A DNA stretch of 59,648 nt, from the IMG/VR virus record IMGVR_UViG_3300025018_000011, positions 1-59,648 of that record. The stretch is one strand, 5' to 3'. Below the pieces are notes generated by a model, which worked only from the letters and a program-made list of their open reading frames with translations, was not told where the DNA came from and made no database searches. The stretch comes from a virus (Duplodnaviria > Caudoviricetes). A program made the position numbers and the translations under genes. Shown here one piece after another: positions 8,870 through 56,590 of this stretch. How positions within the stretch are numbered: the first letter of the stretch is position 1; the number at the start of each line of letters is the position of its first letter.

Positions 8870-9829
8870 TTATTTATTACCAAGTAAACTATTTATTTCA
8901 TCTGAGTTTTTATATTTTAATAACTCTAACATTTTTATATTCTGATCATATGTTCATTTATAATCTTCTAGTCAAATAGCTTCTGCTATTTTTTTTCTAT
9001 TTTCAAATGTTCATTCTATTCATTTCATTCTTAAATTATCTGAAATAGATGAATCAAAGTTTCAAGATACTGCTGTCTTTGCTAATATTACCATTTGCCT
9101 AGCTTCATCTTTAGTTATTTCACCAGATTTCAACATAGATAATATATCTTGTTTAATTGGTTCTAATTCTTCTTTTGCTTTATCTAACTCTTTTCATGCT
9201 TGTTCTTTAGCATATCAATCATTTTTTTCTAATTCTCAAGTAAAAGAATTTCTTGTTTCTTTTTTATCTCATTCTAATTGTTGTTTATTAAAATCTTCTT
9301 GAGTAAATTCTTTATCTTCTTTTTTAATTTCCTCTTTAGTTTCTTCTCATCATGTAACTTTTATTGGAAATATATCTTTTTGATCTATTACATCTTTAGT
9401 TTCTTTTTTAACTTCTTCTTTAACTTCCTCTTTATCTCATTCTGGACTTATTCAAAAGTTTTTTAACATACCTGCCATGATAGGATGTTTATTCATCCAG
9501 TTTCATAATGTCTTACTTTTATCTAATATACTTTTTACTTGATCTTGTTTATCTAAAAAATCATCAGACTTCTTATTAAACTTATCTAGAAATCATTGTT
9601 TAGATTGTATATTAGTTCAATGTCATCATGTAACTACATTTGTAGTAAAATCAGTTGCAGTTCAAGCTATATCTCAAGCTATATCTGCTGAGTTAATTAC
9701 TCATTTAATTAAGCTCTTAGGGATTCATTGTCATAAGTCAGCAATAGCTATTCATGTTCATTTAATAAATTTTCAAACTCATGTTCATATTTTTCATGCT
9801 GTTGATTCTCAACTTTTCATTTCTGACAT
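8870..9829 (-). CDS. Putative internal virion protein with C-terminal DUF3597-like domain, 319 aa
   Basis: G/A-rich N-terminus, E/K-rich middle, C-terminus SISDNLRMKGIEGTFENRKKIAEAIGLEDYKGTYDQNIKMLELLK. Confidence 0.6.
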
Positions 9830-14625: not shown

Positions 14626-16632
14626 TTAAATTATATTATCTAATGCTGATAAATCCTCTTCTGTTAATTGAGTTTCATCTACTGTTTGTGCTTGTTCTTC
14701 TTCTCAGTATTGGCTTTGTTTTTTGTAGTCAGATGCTTCATCTGGTACGAACTCTTGTTTATTTCAATAACTCTTATATCCTCATTGTCCTCAGTTATAT
14801 GATTGGTTATTATTATAAGCTTCTGATTTTGCTTTCTTTGCTGCTACTTCTTCATCAAGAAGTTTTTGACTAACATATGATTCTTTATATGATTGATCTT
14901 TAAAAATATTATCTATTTCAAAATCCATTCATAAAGTAGCTTTCATTAATTCTGGCAAGTTAACTTTATCTTGAGTATATTGTAATAAGTATTGTAGATT
15001 TTCTTTTAATGCTGCTCTTCTATTTTCTTGTTCTACTTTGTATAGAGCATCGAATGTAAATGTAATATTATCTTCATCGATTATATCTCTTACATCTTTA
15101 CCATTTACTGAAAATGAAATTATATTTTTTCATCCCTCATCCATTATATCTACTATAGAAATTTTTTTCTTTAATAATTCTGCTCTAGAGAAATACTTTA
15201 AGAACATTAACACCCAACTTCTTGCCATATTTCACATCATCATATTAATTGAATCAGTGATAGGTGTTAGTTTAGATTTATATTGGTTTAGTATTAAGTC
15301 TACTCAACCAGATACTCTTTCTGCTCTTCATTGTCATCCAAGTAAATATTGATTAACTCATGATCTTTGTTGACCAAACTCAGTCATTACTTGCATATAG
15401 TTTAATGGAGCAAAGTCTTTTGTTCAAAGTTCTAATCTACGAATTGAATTAGGTGCATTAACTTTTAATGCTCAGAATTTTTTAAATTCTATTTTACCAT
15501 TTCTTACGAATGGACTATTACCAACTACTTCATACATATCTGATAAAGACATTTTAGTATTATCTAAAAATGCATTCCACATTCAATTTAATACATGTTG
15601 TATCCCTCAGATTTTATCTGGTTCTCATTGTGCATTTCAAGTTCATGGTATTTCAGAATTTACAACTTCTCTTATCTCTCATACGTTATGAGTCTTTTCT
15701 CATTCGTATAGAATTATACCATTAACATAGTATGCTACTTCTGAAGAAGTATTGTATGTTACAAATTCATATGATGTAGAATCTTTATTTAAAAAATAGT
15801 TATTCATATCTCTTTCACTATCTACTTGTCTCATTGGTAAGTTAACATATCATTTACTTATAGTAGATTCTGTTCTCATCTTATTTATTAGTAATGGAGA
15901 TACATTACTTAAATCTTTAACTGTATTGCAGTTATAGAAACTGAATGGTTTTTGATCTCCATCCTTAGCTGTTTGAAGTACTTTATTTATAAGTGCATCT
16001 ATTTTTTTATAGTGTGCATCTTTTTCTTCATCAGTCATTGCTTCTTTTACTAATCTTTTAGACCGTAACATTCTTGCTTTTGTTCTTATTTCTTCACCAG
16101 TGATATAGGTTCTAATAACTTTAAATGGACTTTTATATAATCCAGTTGATCTATCATAGAATACATCGAATACTGAAATATATTCCATAGTAGGAGTTTT
16201 AATCTCAGTCTTTATATCTATTCATAATGAATCAAATTTTTCAACATTATTTTCTTTTAATAAGAAATCTCTAGAATAAGCTTTACCACATATTAATGCT
16301 TCCTTTGCTATAGATGATATAGTTCTTTTTCAAGATTGTCTAAAGTCAAATGCCTTACTACATGCGTCTCTTAATCATTTATCATCTATATTAAATTTAA
16401 ATCAGAAATCATATATACTTGCGAACATAGTATCAATTATAGATGCCACCAATGGGTAGTCTACATTTGATTGCCATGATTCTATTTCATTTATTCTTTC
16501 TAATACAAATCAAAGATATGTTTTATAATTATCTATGTATTTTGGGAACACATAATTTTCAAAAGATATAATAGTATTCTTAATTAATGTTTCTCTATCG
16601 AGTCTTTTTTGTTCTAATGTTTGCTTTTCCAT
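14626..16632 (-). CDS. Portal protein (P22/podovirus-like), 668 aa
   Basis: WQSNVDYPLVASIIDTM, AKEALICGK, EYISVFDVFYD; Q/E-rich tail; follows terminase. Confidence 0.85.
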
Positions 16633-16634: not shown

Positions 16635-18671
16635 TTAATAATAAGGATTATAAGATACTGTCTCTTCAATATTATATGAATAAACTTCTGCATTATCAAA
16701 TTCTTGTCAGTAAGTCTTCATTTCTTCTTTAGTTGTTAATCATAGTACTCATACTATATATGCAATTGCATAAGCTAAAGATAGAACTAGATCATCTTTT
16801 GTTTTTCATTTTCACTTGTAAAGTATAATACCAGATTTTCAACTAGATAATTTTTCAAAATTATTTAACTGTTCTAGTAAATGATACAAGTCTTCCTTAA
16901 TTTTTATTTGTCTTCACTTTAATGCATTTTCTAAGAATCATATTAATAATGTTTTAGACATTACCCAATATCATTTTTTGTTATGAGTTAATGAACCTTG
17001 TCAACTTGTCTTCATCCGAATATCTATTACTCAGTTCTTATCTAATTCAGACAATAGTTCTCATACTCATGATCTATCGCATACAGTAGTAGACTTAGGA
17101 AATTCAGTTTTTAGATTCTTTATATAATCTAATTGATATATATAGTCTGCATTCTCTAATTTAATACTTCTCTCTACTAATTGTGTATTAAGATTGAATA
17201 CAGTTATTCAAGCATTATCATCAAGTTTTGCTGGATCAAGTGAGATTATTCTATAATCATTCTTAGGTCATTCAGATAAATTAATAATATTTCATGAAAC
17301 TTGAAATACTTTCTTCTTATCAAATATAATACAATATCATTTTGCATATAATTCTTCAGTAGATTTATCTCTCATTTGAGCTTTAATTGTTTCTCTCATC
17401 ACTACTCTTTCTTGTTCTGGTAATCAAGTTCAAAGTAATTCATTATCATCAATAGTTACACGATATGATGCGATTAATGGATCTCATAGTTCTCATTGTA
17501 TTAATAATTGATACGCCCAATGGTCTATAGGTGTTTCTTCATTAGCCGTTGATATAATAAAGAATGATTCAGTTTCAAAGATTGCTCTTTGATAGAATGA
17601 TGTCCAGAATCTATTTGTTATACGAGTAGCTTCATCAATGATTGCATCATCACAAGCTATTCATTCTCATAGAGATTCTCATAGTTTTTTAGTTGTCTCT
17701 TGTAATATCGCATGTAGTGATACTACTTGTAATATATTTCAAGTTAATAAGCACTCTATTGTTAATGATGATTCATTAATTTTAAATACACGCTTTCTTC
17801 AAGGTATATCATATCATAAATCTCATATTAATGTTTTACAATATCTAAAATATGTAGTACCTATTTGATCTTTGTTAGGAACAAAGTATTTTATATCTCT
17901 AGGTCTAGTACCTCAAAATCACTTCTTAGGATTAAGTAAAGCTCTTATTGATATGTAAGCGGCATCAAATGTTTTACCGTTCGCCCTAGACGCTATAACT
18001 ACGTTTATTTTGTTCCAATTGATTAACACAGACTTAAACCAAGTAAATGTTTTAAACATTGCATGTTGTCTTAATAAATGTGTGTATGCATAATCTCTAT
18101 TAATATCGCCTATTTCTTTATTAATAAATCATTGTTTTATCTCTGCTTCGAGAACATCTTCTAAAGTATATGTTGTAACAAACGCTCTAGTGGTTCTATA
18201 GTAATTTGTTCTTGTTGAACCTTTTGTAAATTTAAATCAATACTCTCTTCATTTTCTTAAAAATCTTCAAGTAAAGAGAATTGTTTTAAACAGAGTATAT
18301 TGCAAATCAGAAATAAATCACTTCTTAACTGCTTCTTTAAAGTAGTGTGCGAGTGTAGTTGTTTCATCTGCTCATTCTTCTAAGATTGGCAAACTAATTC
18401 ATACTGTTCTTTTTCAAAGTAATTCTTGAAGTATTCATGATACTTCAAATGTCATCTTTTGAAAAGGTGCAAATGAATTATGATTTGCAATATCACTATC
18501 TATAACATATTTAAAATCTTGATCAACTGATGAGTTAACTATGAATTTATTTTTATTTACTAATACAGTATCATCAACAATAAATGAAGACATTATTTTA
18601 CAATAATCTTCATAAAAATATTTATTTACAGTATTGTGATAAAAATATTTATCTAGTTTTCAAATCAGCAT
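16635..18671 (-). CDS. terL: Terminase large subunit, 678 aa
   Basis: Walker A ASRANGKT, Walker B AIIDEA, nuclease motifs SLDPAKLDD, DRSGVGE, KDDLVLSLA. Confidence 0.9.
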
Positions 18672-18681: not shown

Positions 18682-19032
18682 TTAAAAATTAAGCTTATCT
18701 CATTTAGCTGGAATATTATTAAATATAGCTACTTGAGTCTTTTTATCTGATAAGTCGAATCAATATATTTTTAATAACACTTTTGCTGCTTCTAATATAG
18801 TTTTAAAGTCTGGTGACTCATATCATTTATTATTTAATATATATGCTTTTTCTAATACATAATTTAATTTATCAGCTATGAATGACATATTCATTCATTT
18901 ATTTGATAATGCTTGAGCTAGCTCTTGCTTTAGCTCATTAAAGTTTTTTGGATCTAAAGGAACCACTTCGTTTAGAGGTGGTTCATTATTAGTTAAATCC
19001 TTTTTATTTTGTATTATTATTTGCTTATTCAT
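18682..19032 (-). CDS. Putative terminase small subunit, 116 aa
   Basis: Directly upstream of terL; helical ILEAAKVLLKIYG motif. Confidence 0.55.
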
Positions 19033-22000
19033 AATTAAATGGTTTATCTGACAATAATCATTTACTTGCTTTTGGAATTCTATTAGGTGCTAACTTCCTT
19101 TTTAGATTTTTTACTTTCCTTTTTGGCTTAAGTATAATAGTTCTTTTCCTTTGTTTTGCAAGTTCTCTTTTATTTCATCAAGCCTTTATTATATTAGTTC
19201 AAAATAATTCTGGCATCATCATTTCTATTTTAGCTTTTTGATATTCTTGCATTATAGGTGTTTTGAAATAATTAATAGCTCATCATTGAGGATATCCTCT
19301 CATTGATTCTCATACATAATTTCAAGGAGTATTAGATATATATCAAATTTTATTTGGTATGAAATCTTTTAATGGTTGAAATTGTTTTGAGAAGTTTGGT
19401 CTAGCATCATTAAATCATGCAGATTTTCAATTTGAAAATATTCTATTAGGATAATACTTTTTACTATATCATCATTTTGTTTGTTGAGAGTTAACTATGT
19501 CTTTTAAAATACTAGTAGCATCATATTCAACTGATTTAACTGAAGTATCATATATCCAGTTTGCAATAATTTTCTTAGTATTATAACTTAATCCTTCAAA
19601 TCTTTTATCATCTTTTAATAATCCATAACTCGCTTTATCCATTCACAACATTGCTGCTGCCTTTTTAGCTAACTTTGTTTTTGGATCTTGTGAACTATTT
19701 TCAATATCAATTAATGTTTTAATTATTAATTGTCATACTGTTTCATCGTTTCAATTAAATCATGCATTTAAAGTAGAGAACCTAGTTGTTAATACTCATA
19801 CTGAAGTATCTCATCTTTGTAGATTTCTTGTAGCTAAATATTCATTTGCTAACATTCTATTTGCTTCTTTAATTATTTTACTATCTCTATATGTATTTTC
19901 TAATTGAGAACTTAAATCTTTTTGATTATATTTCATTTCTAATTCTATAACTTTATGAACTGATGTTGCATCCATATTAAGGAAGTCAGCATGTTCCATT
20001 AAAGCTTGTCTCTTAATTACATTTTGTTGATATGTAGTTAACCATGGTTTACCTTGTTCATCATATTGTCATAATTCTTTTGTTAAAGCTTTAAACAATT
20101 TAGATTGTTTCGAATAAATAGCATATGCATTAATTTGTCCTGCTCAAATATTTCAACCGAACTCAGCTAGTGCTTGAAGTTTTAGAAATCATTTTGGATA
20201 TTCTGATGGTGCGTTAATTACTTTATCGAAATCTAATCACTCTAATTCCATTTTTCTTTTTAACTCAGTAACTACTACATCATCTAACATTGTTAGTCTT
20301 TGTACTGTAGTTTCATCACTATCTAAATCTCAATACTTATATAATCATCTACCTTTAATGTCTAGTTCTCTTGTGTAATCATATGCTACATCATTGTATA
20401 ATGTTGCAATAGCTTTTTGTTGGTCATCAGTTAGATCATCTGGATTTTTTCAAAGTAACTTTCAAAGATTATATTGATTTCAATCAATGTTTGTTATTCA
20501 CTTATTTGTCATAAGTTGTTTTAATCAATCTCTTTTATACGCTTCTTCTATTATCTTTTGAACTGCTCTTGATGTTACAGAGAATTCTCATGTTTCTAAT
20601 TTAAACCGATCAACAATCATATTTGAAACTGACATCATGAATCAAGTATTTTGAAAATTTGCGAATTGCATTCATTTCATTTTTTCTTCAAATATATCAT
20701 CTTCACTAGTATTACCTCATAATCACATTAATCATATATTTGTTTTATCTGTAATTGTTCAATATGAATCATTCATTGCTTCAAATCATATATATCTCAT
20801 ATAAGAATCATTCATACTATTGATAGAGTCTGCAATTGATTTAGCTGCCAACATTGTTGTTTCAACTATGTTTTCTGATTCATCTGCATGTTTGTATGCA
20901 TCAATAGCTCAAGCTAACATTTTTGGAACTACAGCTAAAGTTCTTGTATATCTTTTTAATAATTCATATGAAGTGTATTGTATTGCTTTAGATGTATCTC
21001 AAAATCTATTTGCTATCTCAGAACTTTCCATTATTTGTCATAATAAAATTTCTCTAGATACAAGTACGTTATTAAATGCTTTCATGAAATCCTCTGATGC
21101 TCATAGATCATTTGGATCTCTTTCATATTTTTCAGTCTTCATATATAGTCATAATGCATTATTTGACATGTAAAGAAGTGAACTATTGTAAGATAACCAG
21201 TTAGACATTTCTGATTTAAATCATTTAAAATCTCAATCTCTTAAATATTTTCATGCTCTTAAGAATGATAATTGATTGTCCACATATTGAGCTGTATTAT
21301 GAAATCACCATCCATTTAGATATCATACTGCTGACATAAATATTCTTGGCATAACATATTTTCATTCATCTCAATATATATCCATAGTATTCAATAATGT
21401 TTTTCTGTGTAATTGAGATGATGATACAACTCATCCTCAAGTCTTAGCATAGAATGTTCTAGTTTGAGTACTTATGAAATTCTTAATATCTTGCATATGC
21501 CACCCCATTGCAATTCTATCCTCTATAAACTTTGGTAAATCTTTTACTTCTATTCATATAGTATTTGTGAATTCTATTAATGCTGCTCTTTTACGTATTC
21601 ATTCTAATGGTGCATCCCAAAATGTTAATGGACTCATGAAAAAACTTTCTACATATTTTCAAAATCTATTGTAATCTTTTCAAGTGAACTCTGACATTTT
21701 ATCAAATGGTATAGTTATTAATCTTGATAGAGTATTCATTAATCAAGTTTGTGATATCTCACTATCATATCAAACTGATAATCTAATTAAATCTTCTGAT
21801 TCTAATAATCAATATTTTTTTAACATTGCTTCAGCTTCAGATAATTGATTTTTATGCATTGCTATTCTAGCCATGATTTGTACGTAGTTTGGTAATAATT
21901 GTACGAATCACATTATTTGTCATTTTTGATGAGTTAATGTTGATACTAATCAATATCAAAATAGATAATGTAGAGCATTGAAAGCATTAAAAATTCATTC

Positions 22001-25000
22001 TGTTTTACCTCATCTAACTGGGTATAGAGTATTTGTAAGTATAGATGCATCCCTATTTGATATTCAAGTAGTTTTTAATTTATCTAATAGATTAGTTCTA
22101 TTTAATAATCAATTAGTTCTTAATGCAAATGTATAATCTGATTTTACTGATTCAATTAAATCTTTAAATAATGTATCTGATTTAGTATCTATATATTCTT
22201 TTGCAATAGTAATTTCATTTAAACTTCATTTAGTTGTTGATTCTAATTTATTTATAATTACTAATGATGGTTCTATAATTTGTTCTCTATATTTTTGTAT
22301 AGCATCAGTGAATAGTTTATTAGATTTTCAATCAAATAATGGTAATCAACTTACTGAATCTACATTCATTCAACTAATTTCATCTAATATTTTATCAGTA
22401 TTTACTGTAAGAATATATCAGTCTGGAGTTTGTTTTATTGATGATGTAAATACTTTATCAATACTTTTCATAAATGGTTCAGCTTGATCTTTTCTTAAGT
22501 TAAATTCTTTTTTTAGTAGTTTACTAATAGCAACGAAATTATCTTTTAAATCCTTTCATAAACTTTTTGAAGCAAATTCATTAGTTAATTTAGATACCAT
22601 ATTAATTCTTTCCATAAGTAATGGATTATATTTATTTAGTATGTCTGCTAGTACTAATTTTCAAAATCATTTTCTAAGTGTAGCTAATTTACTATGTTGA
22701 TTTAATGTCTCTTCTAATGCATCTCTTGTTATCTCTGGACTAAAATCTATTCTAGGTATAAACTCTCATTGAACTTCAGTGAAATCTCTTATTGTATCAG
22801 AGTCTATCATTTTTGTAGTAAAGTCTTCTACTGTTTCACTTTGTTTCAATTCTATTTTTTCTATTTCTTCTTTTCTAATTTCAATTTGATTTACTATATC
22901 ATCAATTTCAGAATCAAGTCTTCATTCAGAATCATTTAAAATTAGATGTAACTCTTCTATCTCTTTATTGATAATTCAAATATCAGAAATACTTCTTTGT
23001 TCTTGTATATCTTTTGAATATTTATTCATAAATGTTTTTAGATTTTCTCTATTAGCAGCATCAGAATATTTAATAAATTCTATCTTTTCTTTTGCTAATA
23101 ATAAATCAACTATTTGTGAATTTCAATCAGACAATGCATATAATGCAAACATATTTCTAGTAGCGTAATCTTCTAATAATGCTTTATCAACTATTGATAT
23201 AGCTTCATGTCATTTTATTCAAGATTCTTTTAGAGTATTATACTCTGTTACTAATTTATTTAATGTATCGTTCTTATATCATTTAGATTCTTCTTTGAAA
23301 AAATTCTTTAAATCTAGTTTAGATTCTTTTTCTAAGTATCTTTTTCAATTTAATAGCTCTTTAGCTTTACTTACTATCTTATTTAAGAAGACTTTATCTT
23401 CTTCTTTTGCTACTTTTTTAATAGATATGTTATCAAGTATAAATCATAGATCATTTGTTATGTTTATCTTTTGAATATCTGGTATATATTTCTTAATAAA
23501 ATATTCATACAGATCTCATTTAATTCATAATTTTCATGAACTATATTTATTTAAAGTAAATTTATCTAGAAATGCTAATTTAGATATATCTCATTTATCT
23601 ATTACATCATTTGCTTTATATGATGTAGATAATGGTACAAATATTTCATCATGGAATTTTTTAAATCAAGCTCCAGATGGATCATCTATTACTAAGTTAT
23701 ATAAATCTCTTACCCAGTTGCTAGGGAACTCGCTCTTTCAAGACTTAGCAAAGTCTAATGCTATTTGTAATATTGAAGCTGCTTCTTGGTCAAATAAATC
23801 ATCTCATTCTTTAAATTTATATCTTCTTAAATCTAATGTAGATATCTCTTTTTTCCCATAATATATTGTTGATTCAATATTTTTATCTATATTTTTTAAT
23901 AATCTCATAGTTCTAATTCATGCAGATATTAATCATACACTTTTCTTAGCTTCTAATGAAACCATTCTTGCTCTATATAAATTATACTCTGGTTTAGTTT
24001 TGTTTACTTGTTTTGTTGTGATATGTTTATTTCTAATATTATTAAGCTTATCTAATAATTCTAGATTAGTTAATCATACTGGTTCTCATAGAGCTGCCTT
24101 AGCTAATACGTTTCATTTTTTAGAATGTGCTGATACCATAAATAAATGATCTCAGTCAAAGTCTCATTCTTTTTTAATGAATACTGCATATGGACTCATG
24201 ATAACACTATGTTTATCTATGCTTGAATATTTTTTATATAACTCAGAATCAACTGGTAATTTTTCTGCTAACTTTATTTTGTATACTCAAAGATTATATT
24301 TTGATGCTACTGGATATCTATAACCTACTATTTCAAAATCTTTATGTTTTATTTTTTCTCTTATTCTTAGATATTCATCACTATCTTTATCTAATTTAGA
24401 TAATTGTAAACGTAAATCATCTTCTATATCTTTTATGATTTTATTATCTTGAGAAAGTATTATCTCGCTATTTTTTAATAAAGGATCAACTTCTTGCATA
24501 AATACAGTTTCTCACTTTGTTGGTCATTTATTAATTAGTGTTTCTATACTTCATAAGAAATCATTAGAGTATGCTCATAATAATGTATCAGAATATGCTC
24601 CTACATCACTTTGGGCAGCTTTATAATTTGAAATGATATCTTGTATCTCTTGAGTAGTTTTATTCTTGTAAAGGGAATTAAACCTGTCTGTAGTTCAAAT
24701 TGGCTCTACTATAGTTTTAAAATATAATTCATCTATTTGTGACTTCATTATATTTGCTATAGCTTCTTGATGTTCTAATGGTAATCAATTAATTATTTGT
24801 AATGCTACTGATTGTTCTTCTTTTATTTCATGTGCATCAGATGAGGCATTTTTAAAGTCTTGTGTAGTAGTTCATTTAACTTCTCATATAGCTTTATATT
24901 CTCTTCAATTAATAATAATTGTTTTAGGTGAGCTATATTTTGTCATTTGTGAATCAAGCTTCAAAGATCATTCTCAAATAGCTACTGCATAGTTTTCCTC

Positions 25001-28000
25001 AACTCAATCTATAATAAATGAGCTTTTTGATTTATTAAATAAAGTTTTACCTCAATAAATTTTTCAATCTTTTAATCAATAGAAATGATCTTTAAACGCT
25101 GTAGTATCTTTTTTATCTAATCATTTAATCTCATTACGTAATCTCCATAAGTCTTTTGACGCCCATGATGTACCATCATTGAAATCTTTTAAGAATATAT
25201 TATCTAGATATGATTTAACTTCAGATATATTTTTTGGTAAACCAGACATTATGTCTTCATATATTTCTTTAGAAACCTCTCAGCTTATTGCATCTTTAAT
25301 TTCTTCTAAGTTATTACTTTCTTTAATTAAGGTTTTAAGTTTTTGTGTAAAATTATTTACTTCTTGTAAGATATAAGTTTTGATAGGAATATTTACATTA
25401 TCAAACGTATTGTAATTAGACATATTAAATGTTTCTCTTTTTGCTATAACATCTGCAGTCAATCATTCATATCATAATCAATCTCAATATATTTTTTGAT
25501 ATTCATCTTGTTTCGCTAAATAAGATTTTTTACTATCTCAAAAATTATATTTTTGTAAGTATGCATCCTTATCTCAGAATGTTCACATTATTGCTTCTCA
25601 TTTTTCTAATCAAAGTTCTTTTCTTATTTTATCTCTATATGGTGCTAGTATTTTTTTGAATTCTAATGTTTCAAATATTTTTCATTCTACATCTATGTTT
25701 CAAATTTTGTATGAAGCATTCTCTCATTCAATAGCATGAAATATTATATCTGCTTTTTGAACATCATTTAGTGCAATTAGTTCTTCTCAAGATGAAGTGT
25801 ATACTTTATTTTTTTCAAATACATCATCTATTAATTTACTAAGTAATAATGGAGACTTATCTGTAGTTGATACATTGATTGTTGATATTACATCAATTCA
25901 TGATATCTTAATAAATCATATTTTATCTCACATTATTTTTTTCATATCCTCTATCCTAATAACACGATCTTCATATATTCAATCTGTTGATGTAGATATA
26001 TTTTTCTTATAAGTTACCCATTTGTCAGTTTTTTTATCCTTAAATGAATATTGTTTTTCTGATTTAATTATGTTTTTAATCTTTATATTATTTTCTTTTA
26101 ATGCAATTCTTTTGAAACTTTCATATATATTAAAATCTTTTATAGCTAATTCTATTAACTCATCTTTTACATTAACTATCTTTAATCAGTCTATTGCTTT
26201 AATTTCTATGTCTTTTAATGTATCATTTAAAAACTTTCATATAATTTTTCAAAACTCTCATCTCTTTTTAGCTCATATTATTTCATCTGGATTATTTCAC
26301 GAATAATATAATGAGTTTATAAATTCTTTAAACTTCCCATTAGTTTCGAATAAATGATTAACATCTTTACTTGTTCATTCAAAATGTTTATTTAATCAAT
26401 CTAATATAATATTATCAGATGTATCATATATTCATTTCTTAGATGTCATTTCATTTATTAATACTCTTATCGGATTATTTTTTAATGTATATTCTTTTTC
26501 ATAAATTCAAGTTCATAGATTCATTTTAGCTACTATGTCTGATATTATTTTTTCTTCATCAACCCATATCGTATCTTTAAATTTACTATTGTTTAATGAA
26601 ATACTTGTTTTGATATGATTTCTAATTTTTTCAGAAACAGTTATATCATTCTCAAGTTCTTTTAATAAATCATATTTAGTTTGGAAGTCTTTAACTTCAA
26701 CTATTATTTTTATTCTAGCTACTGATTGTTCAAATTCATCTTGTGATAAAGAATTTTTTAATGCTATATTTTCATGCATTCTATCTAATTGATCTTGATA
26801 TGAAATTATATCTGATAATTTAGATTGTTTCTCATTCATAATCGCATTATCTACAATTGTATTTATTTTGTCATATATATCTTGACCATAAAAATAACTG
26901 TCTGTTTTTTTTCTAAATTCTTCTTCAGTCATTAATAGATTTTTTTCTACTTTAACTAATTGAGCTTCTTTAATAACTCTATCTTGTTTAATTTTATCTG
27001 TCAACTCTTTTGTGGATTTATAATTTCTTTCAGATTGTTTAAGATTATTAATTGTTTCTATTAATGTTTCTCTATTAACTTTATTCCTAAGCATTATTCT
27101 TTCAAAATCAGCAGTTATCAATTTATCAGTATGATCTATTTCAGATTGTTTTAATAAATCTTTCTTCTTTGCTAATTCTTGGAAAGCATTTTCATCTAGT
27201 AATATCTTTTTTAGATATTCCATTTTCATATCTTTATTACCTTTCAGTATTAATTTTTCTACAGCATTAAAGTTTTTTGATATTCTATGTGTAGCATTTT
27301 TAATAACTGTACCAATAAAAGGATTTGACTCATATCAGAAAAGCTTAACTATGTCTAGTACTAATTTTTCTATAGATGCAACTTTTTCTACTCATTCTCA
27401 TAGATTATCCTTTAAAAATAAAGACTCTCTTACTATTTGTTTTACTACTCAAACATCAATGTTTCAATCTAATCTTATTACATTTTGATATTTTCATGCT
27501 GATTCTATCGCATCTAATTTCATTACTCAATCAGTATAATCTATTTTTCAATCTATTACTTTAGAATTTTTTAATATATCTCTAAGTACTGTTATTGTTT
27601 TATTTGTATAATGCCCGAAGCTTTCTTTTCAAATAGATTCAAACATATATCCTATAGATGAATCTAATAATTTTTTTCATGGTAATAAATATTTAACTAT
27701 GTTTCTTCATTCAGATAAATCTAATGGGACATCCTCTACTTTTGATAATGGATCTCATTTTTTATATACTTCTGGAAGAGACCCATATGCGAAAACAAAT
27801 AATGAATCTTCATCTTTTACTGCTTGTTTAATAGCATCTATTGTTAAATTCTTATTTCATAAATTCATTTTAGATACATTGTCTCCAAAAATCTTTTGTA
27901 GTTCTTGCATTAAGAAATCCAGTTCTCATTCAATGTAATTTTTAGATGGAGTACTTACTATTCATTTACCATCAGAACTTTGAGATAATCAAGTTACTAA

Positions 28001-30688
28001 TTGTTTGAATTCAGTAGATAATCTTTGTGCGTTATATGATACATTATCAATTGGTAATTTTAATGTATTAGATAAATATTCTTCAGCATCTCTATATACT
28101 TGTTTACTTTTTTTAACAACATTACTTAATCCAGATTCTTTTATTAAATATGTTCAAGCGTCTTTTCTTATCTTTAATCAGTCTACTTCTTTTTTAGTTA
28201 AATCAATAAGTCATTCTTTATATAAATCTGCTGTAGTTTTTCATTTAGCTTGAGCTATTTTATCAAGATCATTTAGTGAGAACTTTAATTCTACTCATGA
28301 TAATGCATTAGTTACAGATACAGTTCATCTATATTTTAATGAACCATATCATTCATTTAATAAAGATATTTGTTCAGATATAGAATCATATAAGTCATCG
28401 TATATTTTTGGATTAGCCGTTTTGATATTTAATAAATCTTGTTTAAATTTATTTATAATATCAACTGGAACGTTTTTTAATTTAGATCATTCTAATAAAG
28501 AATCTCAAGTTACCCATTTATTTAAGTTATCTATTTTCTTTTCAAATGATGATAGATATAAATCTTTTGTTTTTTTATCTAAGTCTCAAAATAATCATTT
28601 TTCACCTGCGTTAAATAAATCATTTATTTCTTTTTGAACTAAAGTAAATGGATTACTAGTTTTTACTATATGTCAGTCTGCAGTAAATAATGTTTTAAGA
28701 TCATCTTTCTTCATTTTTTCTAGATTCGTTTTTACGAAATCATAGATCTCTCATTTATTAAAAAGACCATCAGCTACTTCTGGTTTTAAAGTTGTATTAT
28801 ATAATGGTATAACTTCATCTCTTAATAATTCTTTAGTTGTTTTTGTATCAAATGATTTTCAATTTCTAGTTATTCATTGTTCATTTAATACTCTTGTAAA
28901 TTCTGATACTGCGTTATCTCTTATTTTTTTAGAATCTCACCAGATAAAATCATTTAGTATATCATGTTTAGTATATGAACCTGCTTTTCATATTCATACA
29001 ATGTTAGCATCAAAAAATAAATCTGTGAACATATTAAATTCTTCTTGAGCTTTTGTACTTATTTCTCACATCGCCATATCGATTGCTGCATTTGGTGCTA
29101 TACCAGTTACTATTGATTCACCTGCAAACTTTCAAGCTCTTACTCATTGATTTAATGTAAATAAAGTTGATTGTCCTGCAATACTTCATTTTATTGCTGA
29201 TGATGCTTTATTTAATGCTCATACTTCTTTAATAAATTCAGCACCTAATTTCATTGCAGTTTTTTTTGCTACTCATCAAGCTTTTGATATTCAAGGTCAT
29301 ACTCATAGAGATAACATTGTATTTAATACATCTCAAGGATTATAATACATAGCATGTAAGAAAGTAGAACCAGTTATATTGTCTGCATTTATAATAGAAT
29401 TTCATACTCTTAGTGCAACCACATCATCTCTTGCTGATTGTGTTCAAAGGTTTAATGCTAAACCAGTTGCATTCATTGTACTTTCTATGAAATTATAAAC
29501 TCAATTTAAATTTCTTCAATCACTTATTGCATTTTTCATTTGTCTACTATTTATAGACATTTGTTGCATGTTATCAAAAATCTTTTTATGTTTTACATTT
29601 GCTTTGTCTTCTTCAGATAAAGAATTGAACGCATTTATTGCTGCTTGTTTTTCTATACTATCTGTATCAAGAGTATTTTTATTATTCTTTTTTAATATTA
29701 ACTCTTGTCTAAATTGATTAATATAAAATTTCTTCATTGATTCATTTAAAGTTTTATATTCTCAATTTATTCTAGTCTCATCTCAAGGCTCAGCTTCAGA
29801 TAATGCTGACAATCTTTTATATTCTAAGTCTGAAAATAACTCTATCATCGTATCTTTTTTAGATGAAAGAGATTTATCGGCTAGTTTATCTTTTAAAAAT
29901 GATTGATCTCATAAACGCATATCAACTTCTTCAGCTGCTGTTGTCATTAATTTTTGTTGTACCAATAAAGATCATTCGAATTTCTTTCATCAAATATTTG
30001 TAATATCTTCTCATTCAGATACTTCAATATTTTCTTTTGTATATCTTTCGAAATCTTTATATGAATCTTGTAATTCTTTTTGTTTTAATGCTATTGTTTG
30101 TCATTCTATTGTATTAAATTCATCTTGTTCTTTTTGTATCTTTTTTAATTGTGCTGCAGAATATTCTTGTTGAGCTAATAATGTAGCTTCTTCATCAGAT
30201 ATTCATTGTAATTTATATTTCTCTATAGAACTAACAAAAGAATTTAATGTAGTATATTTAGGATTATTTAAAATCTCTTTCTCTACATTTCAATATTTTT
30301 CTTGTAAAGAATTATATACAGCTTTCTTCTCATCATAATTTTGTTTAAATAAATCTCTATTTACTCATTTTTTATATTTAGTATCATCGATACTAAAAAG
30401 CCCTGTAGTATCTCATACCTTATCCATAAATCATTCTAATTTTTTTGGAGTAAGTATTTTTACTAAAGGTCACATTATTCATTTCGCTTTTTGTAATCAA
30501 GACTCTTCTTTAATAGCTTTAATGTTTAATGAATCATCTTCATTTAAATTAATGTATTCTTTTGGTTTAGAAATTGCTTGGTATAATTGTTGCCCACTCT
30601 TATATGTATTTTGTGAGAACTCTTGGAATCATTCTTTGACATCACCTACGACATCTTTAGCTTTATTAAATATATCTTCTACTGACAT
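19025..30688 (-). CDS. Giant (3,887 aa) putative virion protein containing a two-barrel (crAss-like) DNA-dependent RNA polymerase core
   Basis: All five minus-strand track fragments share one frame; no TAA/TAG found in the stretches read. Motifs NDGTSW..FKDHFYG..GGKTLF..EGSLK, then GYRYP and EGDFDGDHLF (24149-24166). Confidence 0.82.
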
Positions 30689-30888
30689 AATGTTTTTTTA
30701 AGTGATACTATGAACTGTCAGAATTTTGGATAAACATTATAGACTACTCATATTTCATTTAATATTGTTATTTCCTCATCCAGTGTTCAATAAACTAATA
30801 TTTTTATTCTGTAGATACTTAGAAATTTTCTTATTCTTGGTATCAATTTTAAGTATAATTGTTTATCATGAATTTTCAAATAATACAT
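30679..30888 (-). CDS. Hypothetical protein, 69 aa
   Basis: MYYLKIHDKQ...; overlaps the start of the giant ORF. Confidence 0.45.
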
Positions 30889-30987
30889 TGTTCTAAATAA
30901 TGTATTAATATGAACTCATCATTTAGTGCAAAGTAATTGCATAGATAAACTATATTTTTCTAATAATTCTTTATGTAGTCAATAAAA

Positions 30988-31075
30988 AATAATCCTATCA
31001 AATGAGGTGGTATAGGTATCGAATCAGTAATCTCTTAATACTTCTTCTATACTATTATCATTTGATAGGATTATT
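30988..31075. terminator. Long hairpin (perfect 18-bp inverted repeat plus inner stem); terminator or small RNA
   Basis: aataatcctatcaaatga / tcatttgataggattatt. Confidence 0.6.
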
Positions 31076-31089
31076 ATGTTTTTCATTTC

Positions 31090-31779
31090 TTACTCAGTTA
31101 TTTCTAATTTAGGAAATCTTTCCATAAGTTTTTCTTTTGCTTTTATTTCATCATTAGATCATTTATTTTTATAATATATGTAAATTATGAAGAAACATTT
31201 TAAACTTTTTTGTAGTCTTGCTTCAGTTATGGCTTGTATTTGTTCTATTAATTCTAGATCTCATTCATTTTCCATATCTAATCAATTGAATATATCTTCT
31301 ACTGTTTCTAACTTCACAGTATGAATTGTATTTATATTTTCATAACTGTATCATTCTCAAGTAAGTCATTTGAAATCAAATGCAGTAGTATTCTTTTTAT
31401 ATATTTCTTCAATTGTTATTTCTTCTTTATAATATTTAATAATACTTTCTTCAGTTATATTATCAAATAATTTATTTCATCCAGCTTCTAATAAGTATTT
31501 AGAAGCTAATCAATAAAGTTTACTTCATACAATCTTATTATGTTTCAAGAATGTTAATGCTTCTATTTTAATAGCATTTTTATTTACTGATTCCCATTGA
31601 GATAATGGATTTATTTTTGTAAATCATAATGTATGAACATATCTTATAGCATTTAAATAGAATTCTATTTTTTCTAAATTTCATACTGGATCATTATTGA
31701 AAAAAGAATCTAAAGTTTTTTTACCAAAATACTTTAATCTATAATCAGCAGCTATTTTAAAAACATTACTTGTATCCAT
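31090..31779 (-). CDS. Hypothetical protein, 229 aa
   Basis: Open frame MDTSNVFKIAAD... in code 25; upstream TTGACT-N16-TAATAT at 31811-31838. Confidence 0.7.
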
Positions 31780-31823: not shown

Positions 31824-33680
31824 TTATGCATAAGTCAAATTATTTCATTCTCTTTTAATTTGCATGTCTGATTTAATATTTGTATACACTCAAGTATCTG
31901 TATCATAATTTAATTCTAACACTCATGTAAATCATTCACGGTTTTTAGTTATTATAAGTTCAGTTAATGCATCTTCTTTCATTTTATCTCTATGAACATG
32001 GATGATTTTATTTGGAACTTGCGCTATTGCTACTGCATCTTTAAACGATTCATCATCTGGCCTAGCTCATCAAATCTTTTTATAGTGTGCTACAAGCATA
32101 ATAAAAATATTATATACTCTACAGAATGAATTTATTTGTTGCATTATTTGTTCAAGCATTTCATCCTTTCTATCTTTTTTATCTACATCAAATTTAAAAT
32201 AATGTAGATGATCTATTATTATTACGTTAACTCATTTGTTAACAAAGTCTTGTATTAGTGCTTCCATTTTTGAAATGTGCATAACTCATGTAGTATTATT
32301 AACTACATCATAAATATTCTTATTATCTGATAAAAGATTTCATTTAGCTTCTGTTAATTCTATTTTTAATTGAGCTTGATTATCTATATCGTTTATCATA
32401 AATTTATATTTAGGATAATTAGTTAATCATTTTCTTTTCCTTGCTTTTCATACAGCGTAGTATAATTCCTCTTTACGCTTACTTTGTTGTCTGTCTTCTA
32501 ATGTAAACCTACCAACTTTAAATCATTGCCTAGAAACGTTATTAGATATGTTATTTACAAATGTTGATTTTCAACTTCATGTTAATCATCATACTACTAC
32601 TAATTCTCATCATAGGATATATCATAGTTTATTATCTAGTTCTTTATATCACCATGATATAGCTTTTGTTGGATCTGTATTTAATAATTCATCTAGTCAT
32701 TCATCTAGTAAAGATTGATAACTTCTTATCTCGTAATCTTTTTTAATCTTAGATTGTATGAATACTGAATCAGTAAATATTACTTCTATTGTTCATTCTC
32801 AATATCAACTAAGTTTTACAAAGTCATTTATATCTTTTACTCAATCTTCTTTACTTGCTAATAAAGATATATCAAATAATTTGTAATCTATATTGGCGAA
32901 TTTTTCTAATACCATTTTTCATGCTTCATCATTATCTGGGATTATATAAATCTCATATCAAGCATTAAACATTTTTTCTATTATCTCTATTCCATCATTA
33001 GATGATTTAAGTCATACTGTATTTGTGTAGTATTGACGAAGTGTATACCAGTCAAATAATCATTCAACTACTATGATTCTTTTGTCTGTCTTATTTATTC
33101 AGTGCATAAATACTCATTTACTAAGGGTATTTTTTTCTATCCTAAATCTTTGTTGTGCAGTTGGATCTGGATTTCTACTTTGTAAAGTAATATAATCTCA
33201 TTCAGTATTTGTTATAGGACTAGATATCCATCAGTTATTATTCCTAGAAAAATCTTTTATCTTATCATAGTCTATTGCTCTTGATGCTAAATATGAAATA
33301 TGTTCTACAGATAAAGGTTGTAAAGATTCCCATTTCTTTGTTATCCTATTAATAATCTCTTTATAATTTTCAGTTCTGCTTTCTTCCATTGTTTGTATTG
33401 AATTAATGTCTAACTTATAATGTTTACTAAACCACTCTAATGTTTGCTTATCATTAAATCAATGTAATTTCTTTACGAAGTCATATGGATTTCATGATGC
33501 TCTATGTTTATTTGGATTGAAATCATTTACTATATTTTCACTTAATGAAGCTTTCCATCAATTTGTTTCTTCTCAATGTTCCCATAAACATAATACATCT
33601 CATGAACGAGTAAATTTAATTCAAGTTAAACTTAATATACCCTCTATCGGTATTTTTTTTATTGTTTCGAATATTTCCAT
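31824..33680 (-). CDS. DNA primase-helicase (TOPRIM + DnaB-like), 618 aa
   Basis: TOPRIM VVEGLFD, PDNDEAG, KDIND; helicase GLTGSGKS, IIIDHLH, LVAH, ITKNREG. Confidence 0.92.
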
Positions 33681-34857: not shown

Positions 34858-35151
34858 ATGAATATAAAAAGATTAATAGAGATAGTACACGATAGTTTTC
34901 CTCGTAATGAAAGAATTACTAAGAAACAAGTCTCTACTATTTTAGAGAGATTACTAGATACAATCTCAGATGAAATAATAAAAGAAAATACAGTAAATCT
35001 TTACTGATTCGGTTCTTTTACTATTTGATACAGACCTGCTAGACTTGGTATAAATCCCCAAACTCTAGAACCTTTACAATTACCTGCTTCTAAATCAATT
35101 AAATTTAAAGCATCCACTAGAACTAAAGAATCTCTTAATAAAAAGAATTAA
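34858..35151 (+). CDS. HU/IHF-family DNA-binding protein, 97 aa
   Basis: VNLYGFGSF..RPARLGINPQTLEPLQLPASKSIKFKAS; first G encoded by TGA. Confidence 0.92.
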
Positions 35152-35171
35152 TTTTTATTGAGCATATAAAG

Positions 35172-35207
35172 ATTTATTTAACACATACTTATTTATTTAA
35201 CACATAC
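35172..35207 (+). repeat. 17-bp direct repeat atttatttaacacatac x2
   Basis: Seen at 35172 and 35191, just upstream of ATG 35213. Confidence 0.7.
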
Positions 35208-35212
35208 AGAAT

Positions 35213-35776
35213 ATGACATGAAATAATATTCCAACTCTTACTCCAGAAGAACAATCTAAAAACATCGTCTTAGAGAGCTCTAATGAAAGTGTTGCTATAG
35301 ATAACACTGAATCACCTACTGAATCTTTACAAAGTGAAAATAATACCCTTAACGTTGAAGTGGCTAATTCTAATAAAAATTGATTATCTAATCTAGATCA
35401 ATCTACTAGAGAACTTACTGCTGAAGAACAAGCCATAGAAGTAGCTAAATCTGAAAAAGCTACTGCTGATTTTATCCAAAATTCATTCATACAAGAATGA
35501 GCTGATATTTCTGCAGACTTTAATAAATCTATTAAAAGAATGATAGATGTTAATATTCAAGATTCTATTATTAAATATCTTTCTTCTTACTTTAATGAAT
35601 CATTTATCTCAATGAACGATGCACTTAAAGCCTTAGAAAATAATAACCTACACTTAAACGTTCTTCCATCTAAACTTCAATTCTGAAAATATAAATTCAA
35701 AATTGAAATCCTCTCTAAAATAGATTCTAAAGAATTTAACATAGATATTAACGCTGATCTTAATATATCAGAATAA
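35213..35776 (+). CDS. Hypothetical acidic protein, 187 aa
   Basis: MTGNNIPTLTPEEQ...; open in code 25; followed by a hairpin at 35791-35816. Confidence 0.75.
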
Positions 35777-36084
35777 TATCATATAATATTAAAACATCCT
35801 CTCCAAGATGTTTTTTTATTTCCCCTATTTTATACTACTTGACATCTCATTCTACTTTTCTTCCAGCCCGTGAACTAAGTTAATCAATTGGCTTAACAAT
35901 GCAAAACCTATTTTTACTCAAATGTTGTATAATATAGTTTCATATAACATTTATCCCTAAAAAAATACCTCTCTTATCTAGTGTATTTAAAAAAAAATAT
36001 GAAACTTAGGTGGTGTACTTACCTTATACTATACTACTGGGTCATGTAGTACCCCTGCATCTACGCCAACTTCGACGTCTATTT

Positions 36085-36110
36085 AGGTGGTGGTTGGGGA
36101 GGTGGTGGTT
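36085..36110. promoter_or_regulatory. G-rich motif, copy 1 (tgg[t/c]tggggaggtgg)
   Basis: Also at 36925 and 37225. Confidence 0.5.
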
Positions 36111-36470
36111 TGTTTTATTTATTTGTTTTGTTTTATTTATTTATATGTGGTTTGTTTTTATTGTTTTGTTTTTTGTGTTTTGTTTTTATTGTTTTATTGT
36201 TTTTGTTTTTGTGTTTTTGTTGTTTGTTTTGTTGTATTTGATTGTTTTGTTTTTTGTGTTTTAATATATTGTTTTTTGGTTTTTGAATTGTTGTTTTTTG
36301 TTTTGTGTATACGGAATTTGGGGTTTTTGTTTTGTCGTTTAGTGAGTACAGTTTTTTGTTTTATGGTTTTTGGAATTGTCGTTTTTTGTTTTGTGTTAGG
36401 GTTTTTGTTTTGTAAGTAGTTGTTTGTTGTTGTTTTTTTGTTTTTATTTTGTTTTTTATATGTTTATATA
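36111..36470. other. T/G-rich low-complexity, strand-skewed non-coding tract
   Basis: Almost only T, G and some A on the + strand; C nearly absent. Confidence 0.85.
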
Positions 36471-36924
36471 TTGTTTATAGATATATTTATATAATCTATA
36501 ATGTATATAGTAGTAATTGTCTTATATGATAATACAGTGTTTTATCATATAAGACATTATATATATATTGGCGAAAGGAAACTATAGGAGTTTCTTTTCT
36601 GTTTGTCTGTGAGACAATCTCTTATCTTCCTTGTCTATGTTTAATAGATAATCTTTTAATAAGATTAATGAAATTTTCCCCCCTTTGTTTCTTTAATAGC
36701 ATTTTATACTTTGTGAAAGTATAACAAACATTGTGTTGTTCATTGCCACTGATAGTGTACGGCAAGTATTCGTGTCCCGTTATTAATCGCTTCTTATCCT
36801 ATCTGAGTACGGTTATGCTAGGCATCTATGTTTAGATACTTGTATTTTAGGTTTTGTTTTTATTTGGGGGAATTACCTATATATGATATAGATTTGGGGG
36901 AATTATTGTCCTAAGACAAAATTA

Positions 36925-36950
36925 AGGTGGTTGGTTGGGGAGGTGGTGGA
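36925..36950. promoter_or_regulatory. G-rich motif, copy 2
   Basis: Directly downstream (minus sense) of the terminator at 36957-36983. Confidence 0.5.
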
Positions 36951-36965
36951 TCTATTAAAAGAAGA

Positions 36966-37175
36966 CTATTGAAATCTTCTTTTAGATTCTTCTTTATGTA
37001 TTTCTTGAAATACTTTTTTAGTATCACAGATTAGTGGATAGATTCTTCATACAGAATAATCTTTTCACTTAACTGTTATTACTTGATTAGTGTTGTGTGA
37101 TAAATTCACACAAGCATTTAATCTATCAGCATCATTAATATTATCTGATAATATAAACATAATTAATTGTATCAT
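36966..37175 (-). CDS. Hypothetical protein, 69 aa
   Basis: MIQLIMFILSD...; ends in hairpin aaaagaaga/tcttctttt. Confidence 0.55.
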
Positions 37176-37224
37176 AGTTGTTAAATTAATATATAAAGCA
37201 CAACGCTTTACCATTTTTTTATTA

Positions 37225-37251
37225 AGGAGGTGGCTGGGGAGGTGGATGGTT
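37225..37251. promoter_or_regulatory. G-rich motif, copy 3
   Basis: Between the terminator at ~37254-37285 and ATG 37175. Confidence 0.5.
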
Positions 37252-37267
37252 AAAGAAAAGTAGAAGC

Positions 37268-37408
37268 CTAAGCTTCTATTCTTCTTACTACTTTATAATG
37301 TCTAGTGTGATTTAGTCTCTTAGAAGCTTCAGCTTCTTGTTGACTGTTTATTTTTCTAGCACTTTCAACTGTGCTTTTTTTAATGTTAAGTATTGTAAAT
37401 CAATTCAT
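37268..37408 (-). CDS. Small basic hypothetical protein, 46 aa
   Basis: Shares leader ATTTAATCTTTATGATTATG with the gene starting at 37868. Confidence 0.5.
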
Positions 37409-37451
37409 AATCATAAAGATTAAATAAGTAAAATAGTTTTGTAAAATATAA

Positions 37452-37476
37452 AGTGAGTAGGATTAACCTACTCACT
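37452..37476 (-). terminator. Intrinsic terminator
   Basis: agtgagtagg-attaa-cctactcact. Confidence 0.7.
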
Positions 37477-37478
37477 AA

Positions 37479-37868
37479 TTAAGCAATAACTTTAGTAACT
37501 CTCTTAACTCAATCAGCAGTTAACTTTCAAATTTTCACTGAGTGTTTACTTCAGTAAGCTTGGAAGACAACATTAGCGTCTGAGTCGAACGATTTAATTA
37601 CTCAAACATTTTTACCACTTTGTACTGACATAACATTGTATCATAATACACCTTTTCATTGTATTAAAGTAGAGCCATCTTTTTTATTTACTACCTTAAC
37701 ATTACTAGAAGCATTGATAAAGTCGTGTAAGATTGCAGCCTTTTGTTCTGGTTCTAATGAAGCATTAGAAGCTTTCAAGCTTTCATTTAAAGCTTTGCTT
37801 TCATTGATAGAATCAATTCTATCTGTAATCATATCTAATGAACCATCAACAATATGTAAATTTTCCAT
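37479..37868 (-). CDS. Hypothetical protein, 129 aa
   Basis: MENLHIVDGSL...; extends track ORF 37656..37910 through TGA. Confidence 0.7.
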
Positions 37869-38031
37869 AATCATAAAGATTAAATATATAAAGTGGATAA
37901 GGATATCCATAAGTATTTATAAAAAGACTGTTAGGTTTATCCTAATAGTCTTTATTATTAAAAGTCATTATCTTGTAGACTAAAAAAAAAGACTACCATT
38001 TATGGTAGGCTTTTTTATCTATTATTACTTA

Positions 38032-56519: not shown

Positions 56520-56590
56520 ATCTTTTTGTTATGCTTATAAGTAAATTCATTATATTAATAAATTTTTAATTGCAAATATTTTTACATAAT

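Follow-up and report, generated by a model that had tools for sequence, protein, structure and literature searches.

We analyzed a 59,648-nt stretch of DNA from a virus of the Caudoviricetes (Duplodnaviria; IMG/VR record IMGVR_UViG_3300025018_000011, positions 1 to 59,648; hereafter the window) and report a giant gene on its minus strand, in which TGA is read as glycine. As indicated by conserved motifs and a predicted fold, the central ~700 residues (~1750-2450) of its 3,887-residue product very probably constitute a single-chain two-barrel RNA polymerase (RNAP), and we regard the protein as belonging to a new family of such phage enzymes. The whole explanation that we consider reasonably probable is that this two-barrel core lies within a giant protein, one polypeptide of ~440 kDa encoded by the giant gene, which would be carried in the virion and ejected.

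A Giant Gene Read with TGA as Glycine

The gene under study was delimited as follows.
19025..30688, minus strand: giant open reading frame (ORF), 3,887 codons plus TAA, ATG start, translation table 25 (TGA = Gly)

A sequence-only reading of this DNA had claimed that a single 11.7-kb ORF appears once TGA is translated as glycine, and this was borne out: the frame extends over 11,664 nt, contains 211 in-frame TGA codons when translated with table 25, and has the terminal TAA as its only TAA or TAG. The interval between the catalytic motifs, where an internal TAA or TAG would have spoken against one gene, was included in this count and was free of both. The five alternative frames of the same span held 41-390 TAA or TAG codons each, and base composition predicts ~312 per 3,887 codons, so that the log10 probability of finding none is about -141. 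With table 11, the only ORFs reaching 100 aa that overlap the span were one of 117 aa and one of 238 aa, the longer being the maximum. The further claim that a code-11 annotation would miss the gene also proved correct, because databases hold the family as code-11 fragments of 70-575 aa and as giants with W at TGA.

The two ends of the window are identical over 127 nt (positions 1-127 and 59522-59648), leaving a unique length of 59,521 bp, and the virus record is rated 100% complete and assigned direct terminal repeats. Given these ends, the completeness of the record, and the length of the ORF, the giant gene occupies a fifth of a 59.5-kb genome, as had been stated before. The end repeat may be genuinely terminal, or it may reflect an assembly in which the ends of a circular or permuted genome overlap.

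Catalytic-Type Motifs Lie in the Two Most Conserved Blocks

Six motifs had been quoted in the earlier reading, and all were recovered at the places given there, with positions 24149-24166 corresponding to residues 2175-2180.
25163-25180, minus strand: NDGTSW, residues 1837-1842
25076-25096, minus strand: FKDHFYG, residues 1865-1871
25037-25054, minus strand: GGKTLF, residues 1879-1884
24959-24973, minus strand: EGSLK, residues 1906-1910
24311-24325, minus strand: GYRYP, residues 2122-2126
24140-24169, minus strand: EGDFDGDHLF, residues 2174-2183

Together with the model described below, these motifs define the following map of the protein.
25439..30688, minus strand: N-terminal region, residues 1 to ~1750, mostly helical, low conservation
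24809..25174, minus strand: first beta-rich block, ~1840-1960, candidate lysine barrel (double-psi beta-barrel B, DPBB-B), with strands in the AlphaFold2 (AF2) model
24527..24778, minus strand: helical connector between the barrels, ~1971-2054, AF2 helices H272-299 to H335-355
24131..24523, minus strand: second barrel block, candidate DPBB-A, ~2056-2186, conservation peak at 2101-2200
24311..24319, minus strand: R2124-Y-P2126 (R-x-P), preceding the Asp triad by 52 residues
24149..24163, minus strand: D2176-F-D-G-D2180, candidate Mg-binding triad, with G2179 encoded by TGA
23888..23980, minus strand: candidate bridge helix, 31 residues, 2237-2267, model helix H538-568
19028..23248, minus strand: C-terminal region, ~2481-3887, without family match

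Conservation was counted in a 29-row alignment of relatives, using the rows that cover each site. The D-x-D-x-D pattern was kept in all 25 covering rows, which settles favorably the question of whether DFDGD is conserved in homologues, and R-x-P was kept in 26 of 26. At the fourth position of the Asp motif, 15 of the 25 rows had G, 7 had W, 3 had A, and none had I or V; the W corresponds to TGA read as Trp by code-4 gene callers. The lysines of the first block were equally constant: K1866 (with H1868) in 23/23 rows, K1881 in 23/23, and K1910 in 24/24. These three are candidate active-site lysines of the lysine barrel, judging from their conservation, and the block that carries them (K1866-D-H, K1881, and K1910) is the most conserved of the protein. 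The catalytic-type residues sit in its two most conserved blocks, 1851-1950 and 2101-2200. The long helix at 2237-2267, a candidate bridge helix in the model, has seven residues invariant in six sequences (R2241, A2247, K2248, G2252, A2256, R2259, and T2260). Outside the core, the N-terminal region includes a long helical stretch (~1187-1366) and scored 0.10-0.30 in conservation per 50-residue block, and the C-terminal region contains second-rank conserved blocks at ~2900-3350 and 3550-3800 and ends in a basic tail.

The Predicted Fold Matches Two-Barrel RNA Polymerases

An AF2 model of residues 1700-2500, built with the family alignment, had a predicted local distance difference test score (pLDDT) of 71.5 and a predicted template modeling score (pTM) of 0.73 (model residue + 1699 = protein residue). 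Block-mean pLDDT reached 84-96 across most of the second barrel (model residues 351-470) and dropped beyond about residue 2270. From N to C terminus, the model showed a beta-rich part (~1840-1960), a helical part (1971-2054), a mixed part ending at the Asp triad (2056-2186), and the helix 2237-2267. A second model, covering residues 545-1716 from a 6-row alignment, was unusable (pLDDT 42.6, pTM 0.26).

When the core model was searched with Foldseek against the PDB, all 46 listed rows were RNA polymerases. The best match was QDE-1 (7y7p_A, E 8.3e-7, 777 aligned columns; three QDE-1 complexes were among the matches), and the list also contained phi14:2 gp66 (6vr4_A, E 2.4e-6), P32 gp64 (E 3.8e-5), and P74 gp62 (E 1.2e-3), with bacterial and plastid beta-prime chains and the largest subunit of yeast Pol I in the lower rows. 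Against BFVD there were 20 matches at E<=1e-3, the best at 1.5e-10 and with query TM-scores (TMq) up to 0.47, among them large proteins from uncultured crAss-like phages as well as entries under the name RNA-dependent RNA polymerase. Right-hand polymerases were absent among the listed matches in both databases. The fold proposed from the letters alone thus agreed with the model, which matched two-barrel RNA polymerases including both QDE-1 and phi14:2 gp66.

The Phage Uses Genetic Code 25

This phage's genetic code is code 25, with TGA = Gly. Glycine in the giant gene is written as 211 TGA plus 42 GGN codons, and TGG occurs 13 times. After masking TGA, we made an alignment of the giant ORF and five homologous giants taken from other contigs (six giants in all); at the TGA columns, G was the partner in 658 of 3,265 cells, compared with a background of 2.8% G, and Trp was outside their eight commonest partners. 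The sum of G and TGA per giant protein stayed within 250-315 among the six, with TGA alone ranging from 15 to 296. This count tracked GC content: 15 in the low-TGA relative L003 (36% GC), 94-102 at 34-36% GC, and 211-296 at ~25-26% GC. Across the window and loci L001 and L003-L006, the use of TGA for Gly therefore follows base composition while total Gly stays approximately constant.

The same assignment was seen at functional sites. TGA encodes the Walker-A glycines of the primase-helicase (4/4) and of a Dda-like helicase (2/3), and inspection of the codons confirmed the earlier statement that both glycines of EGDFDGD are TGA. A TGA at the universally Gly position of DxDGD is a neat internal test of the code; with both glycines of EGDFDGD spelled TGA, no cell other than a code-25 one would be able to make the catalytic loop. 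Reading TGA as Trp was rejected, since it would give 224 Trp in the giant protein and place Trp inside the DxDGD and Walker-A motifs. Over 22 ORFs (12,905 codons) we counted 760 TGA, 218 GGN, and 80 TGG, and this set ended in 20 TAA and 2 TAG with no other stop codon.

TGA was as frequent in replication genes as in structural genes, and ARAGORN found no tRNA gene in the window; thus, the host must supply the decoding of TGA. A host that reads TGA as Gly points to the Gracilibacteria or Absconditabacteria. Phages predicted for these bacteria with clear code 25 are already known (PMC10746230), and the term "RNA polymerase" is absent from the accessible part of that article.

Relatives in Databases

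A word-indexed search with residues 1780-2330 retrieved a 95%-identical protein of 3,887 aa and three relatives of 4,196-4,516 aa. An exhaustive search of representatives with residues 1700-2500 gave 36 proteins at E<=1e-3, 29 of them at E<=1e-10; 18 of the 36 were giants of 3,176-4,461 aa and the remainder were pieces of 70-1,183 aa. Taken together, the relatives of giant size (3,176-4,516 aa) number about 20. The short pieces are leftovers of code-11 gene calling, and in L003, for example, code-11 ORFs of 1,198, 835, and 526 aa lie inside the giant frame. The giants from the five other contigs were collinear with the window protein over its full length. In public protein sets (P0015, P0019-P0040), the family appears mostly as 70-575-aa fragments from code-11 calls, and other public copies are giants from code-4 calls with Trp at TGA, even within the catalytic loop.

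The whole giant protein had no match in Pfam or PHROGs (E<=1), and in six relatives the Pfam matches were limited to DUF7831 (two relatives) and one weak DUF4112. DUF7831, a domain of ~115-130 residues lacking from the window protein, was located in relatives P0007 (2500-2616), P0004 (1590-1705), and L004 (10007-12829); as an insertion, it separates the Asp-triad barrel from the long helix in P0007 and L004, and in P0004 it lies upstream of the polymerase core. Searching 50,697 phage records with the polymerase core by tblastn gave no match. A scan of viral contigs found no locus with the single protein as query and one locus with an alignment of relatives (A1) as query. Two scans of genome contigs found nothing; their patterns had G/W, which cannot match TGA-encoded Gly, and they have little bearing on prophages or hosts. 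A further alignment (A6), of an N-terminal fragment with full-length relatives, was dropped because the end of the fragment was stretched over the polymerase core of the relatives. The window had no match in Rfam.

The Giant Gene Lies between Replication and Packaging Genes

The neighborhood of the giant gene contains the following features.
31824..33680, minus strand: primase-helicase, upstream neighbor (phrog_239, E 3.3e-50)
31090-31779 and 30679-31086, minus strand: two small ORFs between the primase-helicase and the giant gene
16635..18671, minus strand: large terminase, downstream neighbor (phrog_2, E 2.6e-13)
14626-16632, minus strand: portal-sized ORF of 668 aa, after the terminase
After the portal-sized ORF: acidic scaffold-like ORF of 214 aa
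12314-13645: weak major-head-protein match (phrog_14242, E 0.0057)

On the same strand upstream lie a replication initiator, the primase-helicase, and the two small ORFs, the second of which overlaps the start of the giant gene by 10 nt; farther downstream, past the major-head match, are tail-fibre-like proteins. The ORFs scanned included neither a recognizable tape measure nor a tail tube, and neither a DNA polymerase nor a second RNA polymerase could be recognized in them; by family matching, none of the remaining ORFs that reach 400 aa matched a polymerase. The giant protein itself was considered as a tape measure, and this identity was rejected because the gene position is wrong and a tail-tube context is absent.

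The arrangement was shared by five related loci, each with a giant TGA-sense ORF (3,979-4,471 aa) and the same pattern of ORF sizes. Upstream of the giant, an ORF of ~580-590 aa was present in the three loci where it was listed (L001, L003, and L005), and all three matched primase-helicase in PHROGs. Downstream, an ORF of ~690-700 aa was found in 5/5 loci, followed by one of ~640-690 aa in 4/5; three of the four downstream ORFs tested matched terminase at E<=1e-5 (L003, L004, and L006).

Several other features of the window were recorded. Short GC-containing hairpins with T-runs after them occur in intergenic gaps of the small-gene region (37920-38031, 53190-53300, and 56550-56670, minus strand); they resemble intrinsic terminators, with no common promoter word beside them. 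When the gap separating the giant gene from the terminase was scanned for terminators, one palindrome was found, which lacks a coding-strand T-run. In this almost wholly minus-strand genome, the principal block of plus-strand ORFs (34858-36419) opens with an HU-type protein that binds DNA (34858-35151, PF00216, E 3.9e-23) and has gaps of 200-280 nt on either side, and GC skew turns positive at 36001-38000; the region might serve as an origin or for divergent control. In the structural block, the C-terminal 60 residues of a 319-aa ORF (8870-9829, minus strand) match an L-alanyl-D-glutamate peptidase PHROG (E 2.2e-10), and its product is possibly a virion-borne cell-wall enzyme. Tandem units of 15 nt at 55085-55414 give a five-residue repeat protein in a 143-aa ORF (55037-55468, minus strand), and 12-nt units at 4056-4276 encode (G/N)NT(V/A/L/I) repeats in a 1,063-aa tail-fibre-like ORF. 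The latter shares a similar N-terminal part with the next ORF, 4970-7126 (97-nt repeat, 4487-4583 and 6653-6749).

Comparison with Known Polymerases

The enzyme had been described as a crAss-like RNAP, and this held at the level of fold. Like the window protein, gp66 of phi14:2 (PDB 6VR4) has both barrels in one chain, in the order lysine barrel, connector, R-x-P, and Asp triad, and is embedded in a very large protein without other recognizable domains; the order proposed for the window protein fits, as the RIP of gp66 (1322) precedes its DFDID (1361). In gp66 and QDE-1, the connector between the barrels is ~140 residues and the triad lies in the second barrel (10.1101/2020.03.07.982082, as far as its text was available, here and below). 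The two proteins differ in the distance from R-x-P to the triad (39 residues in gp66, 52 for RYP-DFDGD), in that from the triad to the long helix (~170 residues in gp66, ~60 in the window protein), in size (2,180 aa versus 3,887 aa, with the window core in mid-chain), and in code, since the window phage uses code 25. They also differ at motif position 4. The crAss-like phages are stated to carry Ile or Val at this site without exception, which keeps the loop in an inactive shape unable to bind Mg, in contrast to the Gly of all RNAPs studied earlier (10.1101/2020.03.07.982082), and DFDID in gp66 stands against Gly, or Ala in three relatives, in the window family.

Beyond the fold, the crAss-like attribution failed. 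Aligning a six-sequence core profile with gp66 by hhalign gave a probability of 0.5% and aligned an unrelated region, and tblastn of the terminase against the 50,697 phage records gave no Crassvirales, with one weak match to Thermus phage phiFa at 23% identity. Membership in the gp66 family was rejected on these grounds: no sequence similarity, no I or V at position 4, and no Crassvirales match for the terminase. QDE-1 of Neurospora crassa shares with the window core a single chain, two barrels, a connector, and Gly at position 4; however, identity is ~10-11% with TMq 0.31, and QDE-1 is a cellular enzyme of ~900-1,400 residues rather than part of a phage giant. Because no sequence match to gp66 or the PDB was found, position 4 is Gly or Ala, and the terminase is not crAss-like, we concluded that the window enzyme would work like gp66 and QDE-1 yet forms a separate family.

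The closest likeness in overall plan is the virion RNAP (vRNAP) of coliphage N4 (Schitoviridae), which shares the giant size class, a three-part plan, and a central polymerase. It has 3,500 aa (N-terminal domain 1-919, Pol 1008-2104, C-terminal domain 2123-3500), and its core is a T7-like right-hand polymerase (PMC13492108, accessible part). The window phage is also N4-like in its comparable genome scale and in having no recognizable tape-measure or tail-tube gene among the scanned ORFs. The likeness is one of architecture and not of descent, the window core being two-barrel, and membership among N4-like right-hand vRNAPs was rejected because all listed structural matches were two-barrel. Phage P23-45 provides two-barrel single-chain enzymes in gp96 and gp64, and the relatives of gp64 (P32 gp64 and P74 gp62) were those matched by the window core. 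The virion RNAP gp96 carries its polymerase at the N terminus, the remainder being the tail tape measure (10.1101/2022.12.01.518664, accessible part); it shows that fusion of a two-barrel core with a giant virion protein can occur, but the window polymerase is central and its gene lies upstream of the terminase, away from tail genes.

Giant phage proteins that contain a single-chain two-barrel polymerase are already known as a kind; the family, its canonical catalytic loop, the central placement in a chain of ~4,000 residues, and the code-25 setting are new as far as our searches reach. We found nothing in the literature on a transcription enzyme of code-25 phages, and the 23 RNAP families in Supplementary Data 3 of 10.1101/2022.12.01.518664 may include this one.

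Proposed Role and Alternative Explanations

The core would operate as a lysine barrel (K1866, K1881, and K1910), a helical connector, a second barrel (R2124-x-P and D2176-F-D-G-D2180), and a long helix resembling a bridge helix. From what is known of two-barrel polymerases, the three aspartates of DFDGD would bind Mg and the lysines of the other barrel would contact the substrate, so that the enzyme would copy phage DNA into RNA. By analogy with N4 vRNAP, crAss-like gp66, and P23-45 gp96, the giant protein would be loaded into the capsid and leave it by ejection together with the DNA, and the ejected enzyme would transcribe the first genes without the host polymerase; the ~1,750-residue N-terminal and ~1,400-residue C-terminal parts may serve packaging, ejection, and control of activity. 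Packaging in the virion is somewhat favored in our judgement, considering the size, the N4-like three-part plan, the conserved position by packaging genes, and the lack of another recognized polymerase gene, and the giant gene may be expressed with late-operon timing. We propose, more tentatively, that a lineage of ~50-67-kb phages of TGA = Gly bacteria may have built an N4-style giant ejected polymerase on a two-barrel core in place of a T7-like one, which may be the sole polymerase encoded by the phage.

Several results weigh against this explanation. For the enzyme, sequence comparison gave no link to a known polymerase (PDB, Pfam, PHROGs, and hhalign with gp66): phmmer with the whole protein gave no PDB match at E<=10, and a profile search of the PDB with alignment A1 gave three irrelevant matches (E 0.3-2.1). 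Global TM-scores are low (0.26-0.33 with single-chain polymerases of the PDB and at most 0.47 in BFVD), and the fold match therefore rests on the local 3Di score of Foldseek. In addition, three relatives have Ala at motif position 4. For packaging and ejection, the flanks contain no strongly hydrophobic segment (Kyte-Doolittle, window 19, threshold 1.4) and no peptidoglycan-hydrolase domain (0 matches in Pfam and PHROGs), so nothing there marks an ejection protein. Promoters were sought by making crude gene calls, counting 9-mers common to intergenic gaps, and following two candidate words. No repeated promoter-like motif emerged in the gaps: neither of the two words rose above shuffled expectation (35 occurrences versus 26.6 and 17 versus 13.5), and their contexts aligned only at sites with a hairpin plus T-run.

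RNAPs that act outside the virion are represented among phages by T7 RNAP, SPbeta YonO, and P23-45 gp64. The giant could likewise be a two-barrel RNAP made by the host polymerase after infection that transcribes middle or late genes, with flanks devoted to other intracellular tasks. The motif conservation, AF2 model, and Foldseek matches support the polymerase core equally under this alternative; the gene directly follows replication genes, the non-virion P32 gp64 and P74 gp62 are among the structural matches, and the absence of ejection-protein marks from the flanks (Pfam, PHROGs, and hydropathy) fits as well. However, the matched non-virion single-chain enzymes have only ~590 residues (593 and 591), whereas the giants that bear a polymerase (2,180-5,002 residues) are described as virion proteins in the accessible parts of 10.1101/2020.03.07.982082, 10.1101/2022.12.01.518664, and PMC13492108, and the gene stands directly upstream of the terminase in related loci (3/4 downstream ORFs), with the same pattern in all five; we therefore consider an intracellular role rather unlikely. 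Cleavage after translation, whereby a single translated chain would be divided into a polymerase and separate structural or ejection proteins and the mature products would not amount to one giant enzyme, appears quite improbable and is compatible with the packaged giant RNAP rather than opposed to it. Long poorly conserved stretches do separate the conserved blocks, and N4 vRNAP is termed an "unprocessed polyprotein" (PMC13492108, accessible part); yet Pfam and PHROGs revealed no protease domain in the giant protein, and relatives keep a single frame of 3,176-4,516 aa, with split forms only as code-11 miscalls.

Even less probable is that the two-barrel domain acts on RNA templates or makes primers, as a QDE-1-like enzyme or replication primase, instead of transcribing genes. 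This would suit the QDE-1 complexes as best PDB matches and a genome in which no DNA polymerase gene was recognized, but the genome already has a primase-helicase, enzymes of the QDE-1 type transcribe single-stranded DNA more robustly than RNA (10.1101/2020.03.07.982082), and the size and gene position would be left unexplained. That the frame is not one real gene, arising instead from a permissive code or misassembly, had no finding in its favor and is hardly conceivable given one TAA or TAG where composition predicts ~312, the full-length collinearity of giants from five other contigs, and the 95%-identical copy of 3,887 aa found elsewhere.

Implications

Giant phage proteins that bear a polymerase have so far been found in three unrelated settings, namely N4, the crAss-like phages, and P23-45, each of which has been informative on the start of infection and on RNA polymerase evolution. 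If the packaged two-barrel polymerase proposed here is true, it would be a fourth setting, without sequence link to the other three, with a canonical DFDGD and with the polymerase central in the chain. Given the canonical Gly in its catalytic loop, the enzyme would not require the unlocking step of crAss gp66. There is also a practical consequence, as the gene is invisible to standard annotation: code 11 breaks it into 70-575-aa fragments, and code 4 puts Trp in the catalytic loop. For phages of candidate-phyla bacteria with code 25, this enzyme would be the first proposed to carry out transcription, and it would allow such a phage to begin its programme without the polymerase of a very reduced host, Gracilibacteria or Absconditabacteria.

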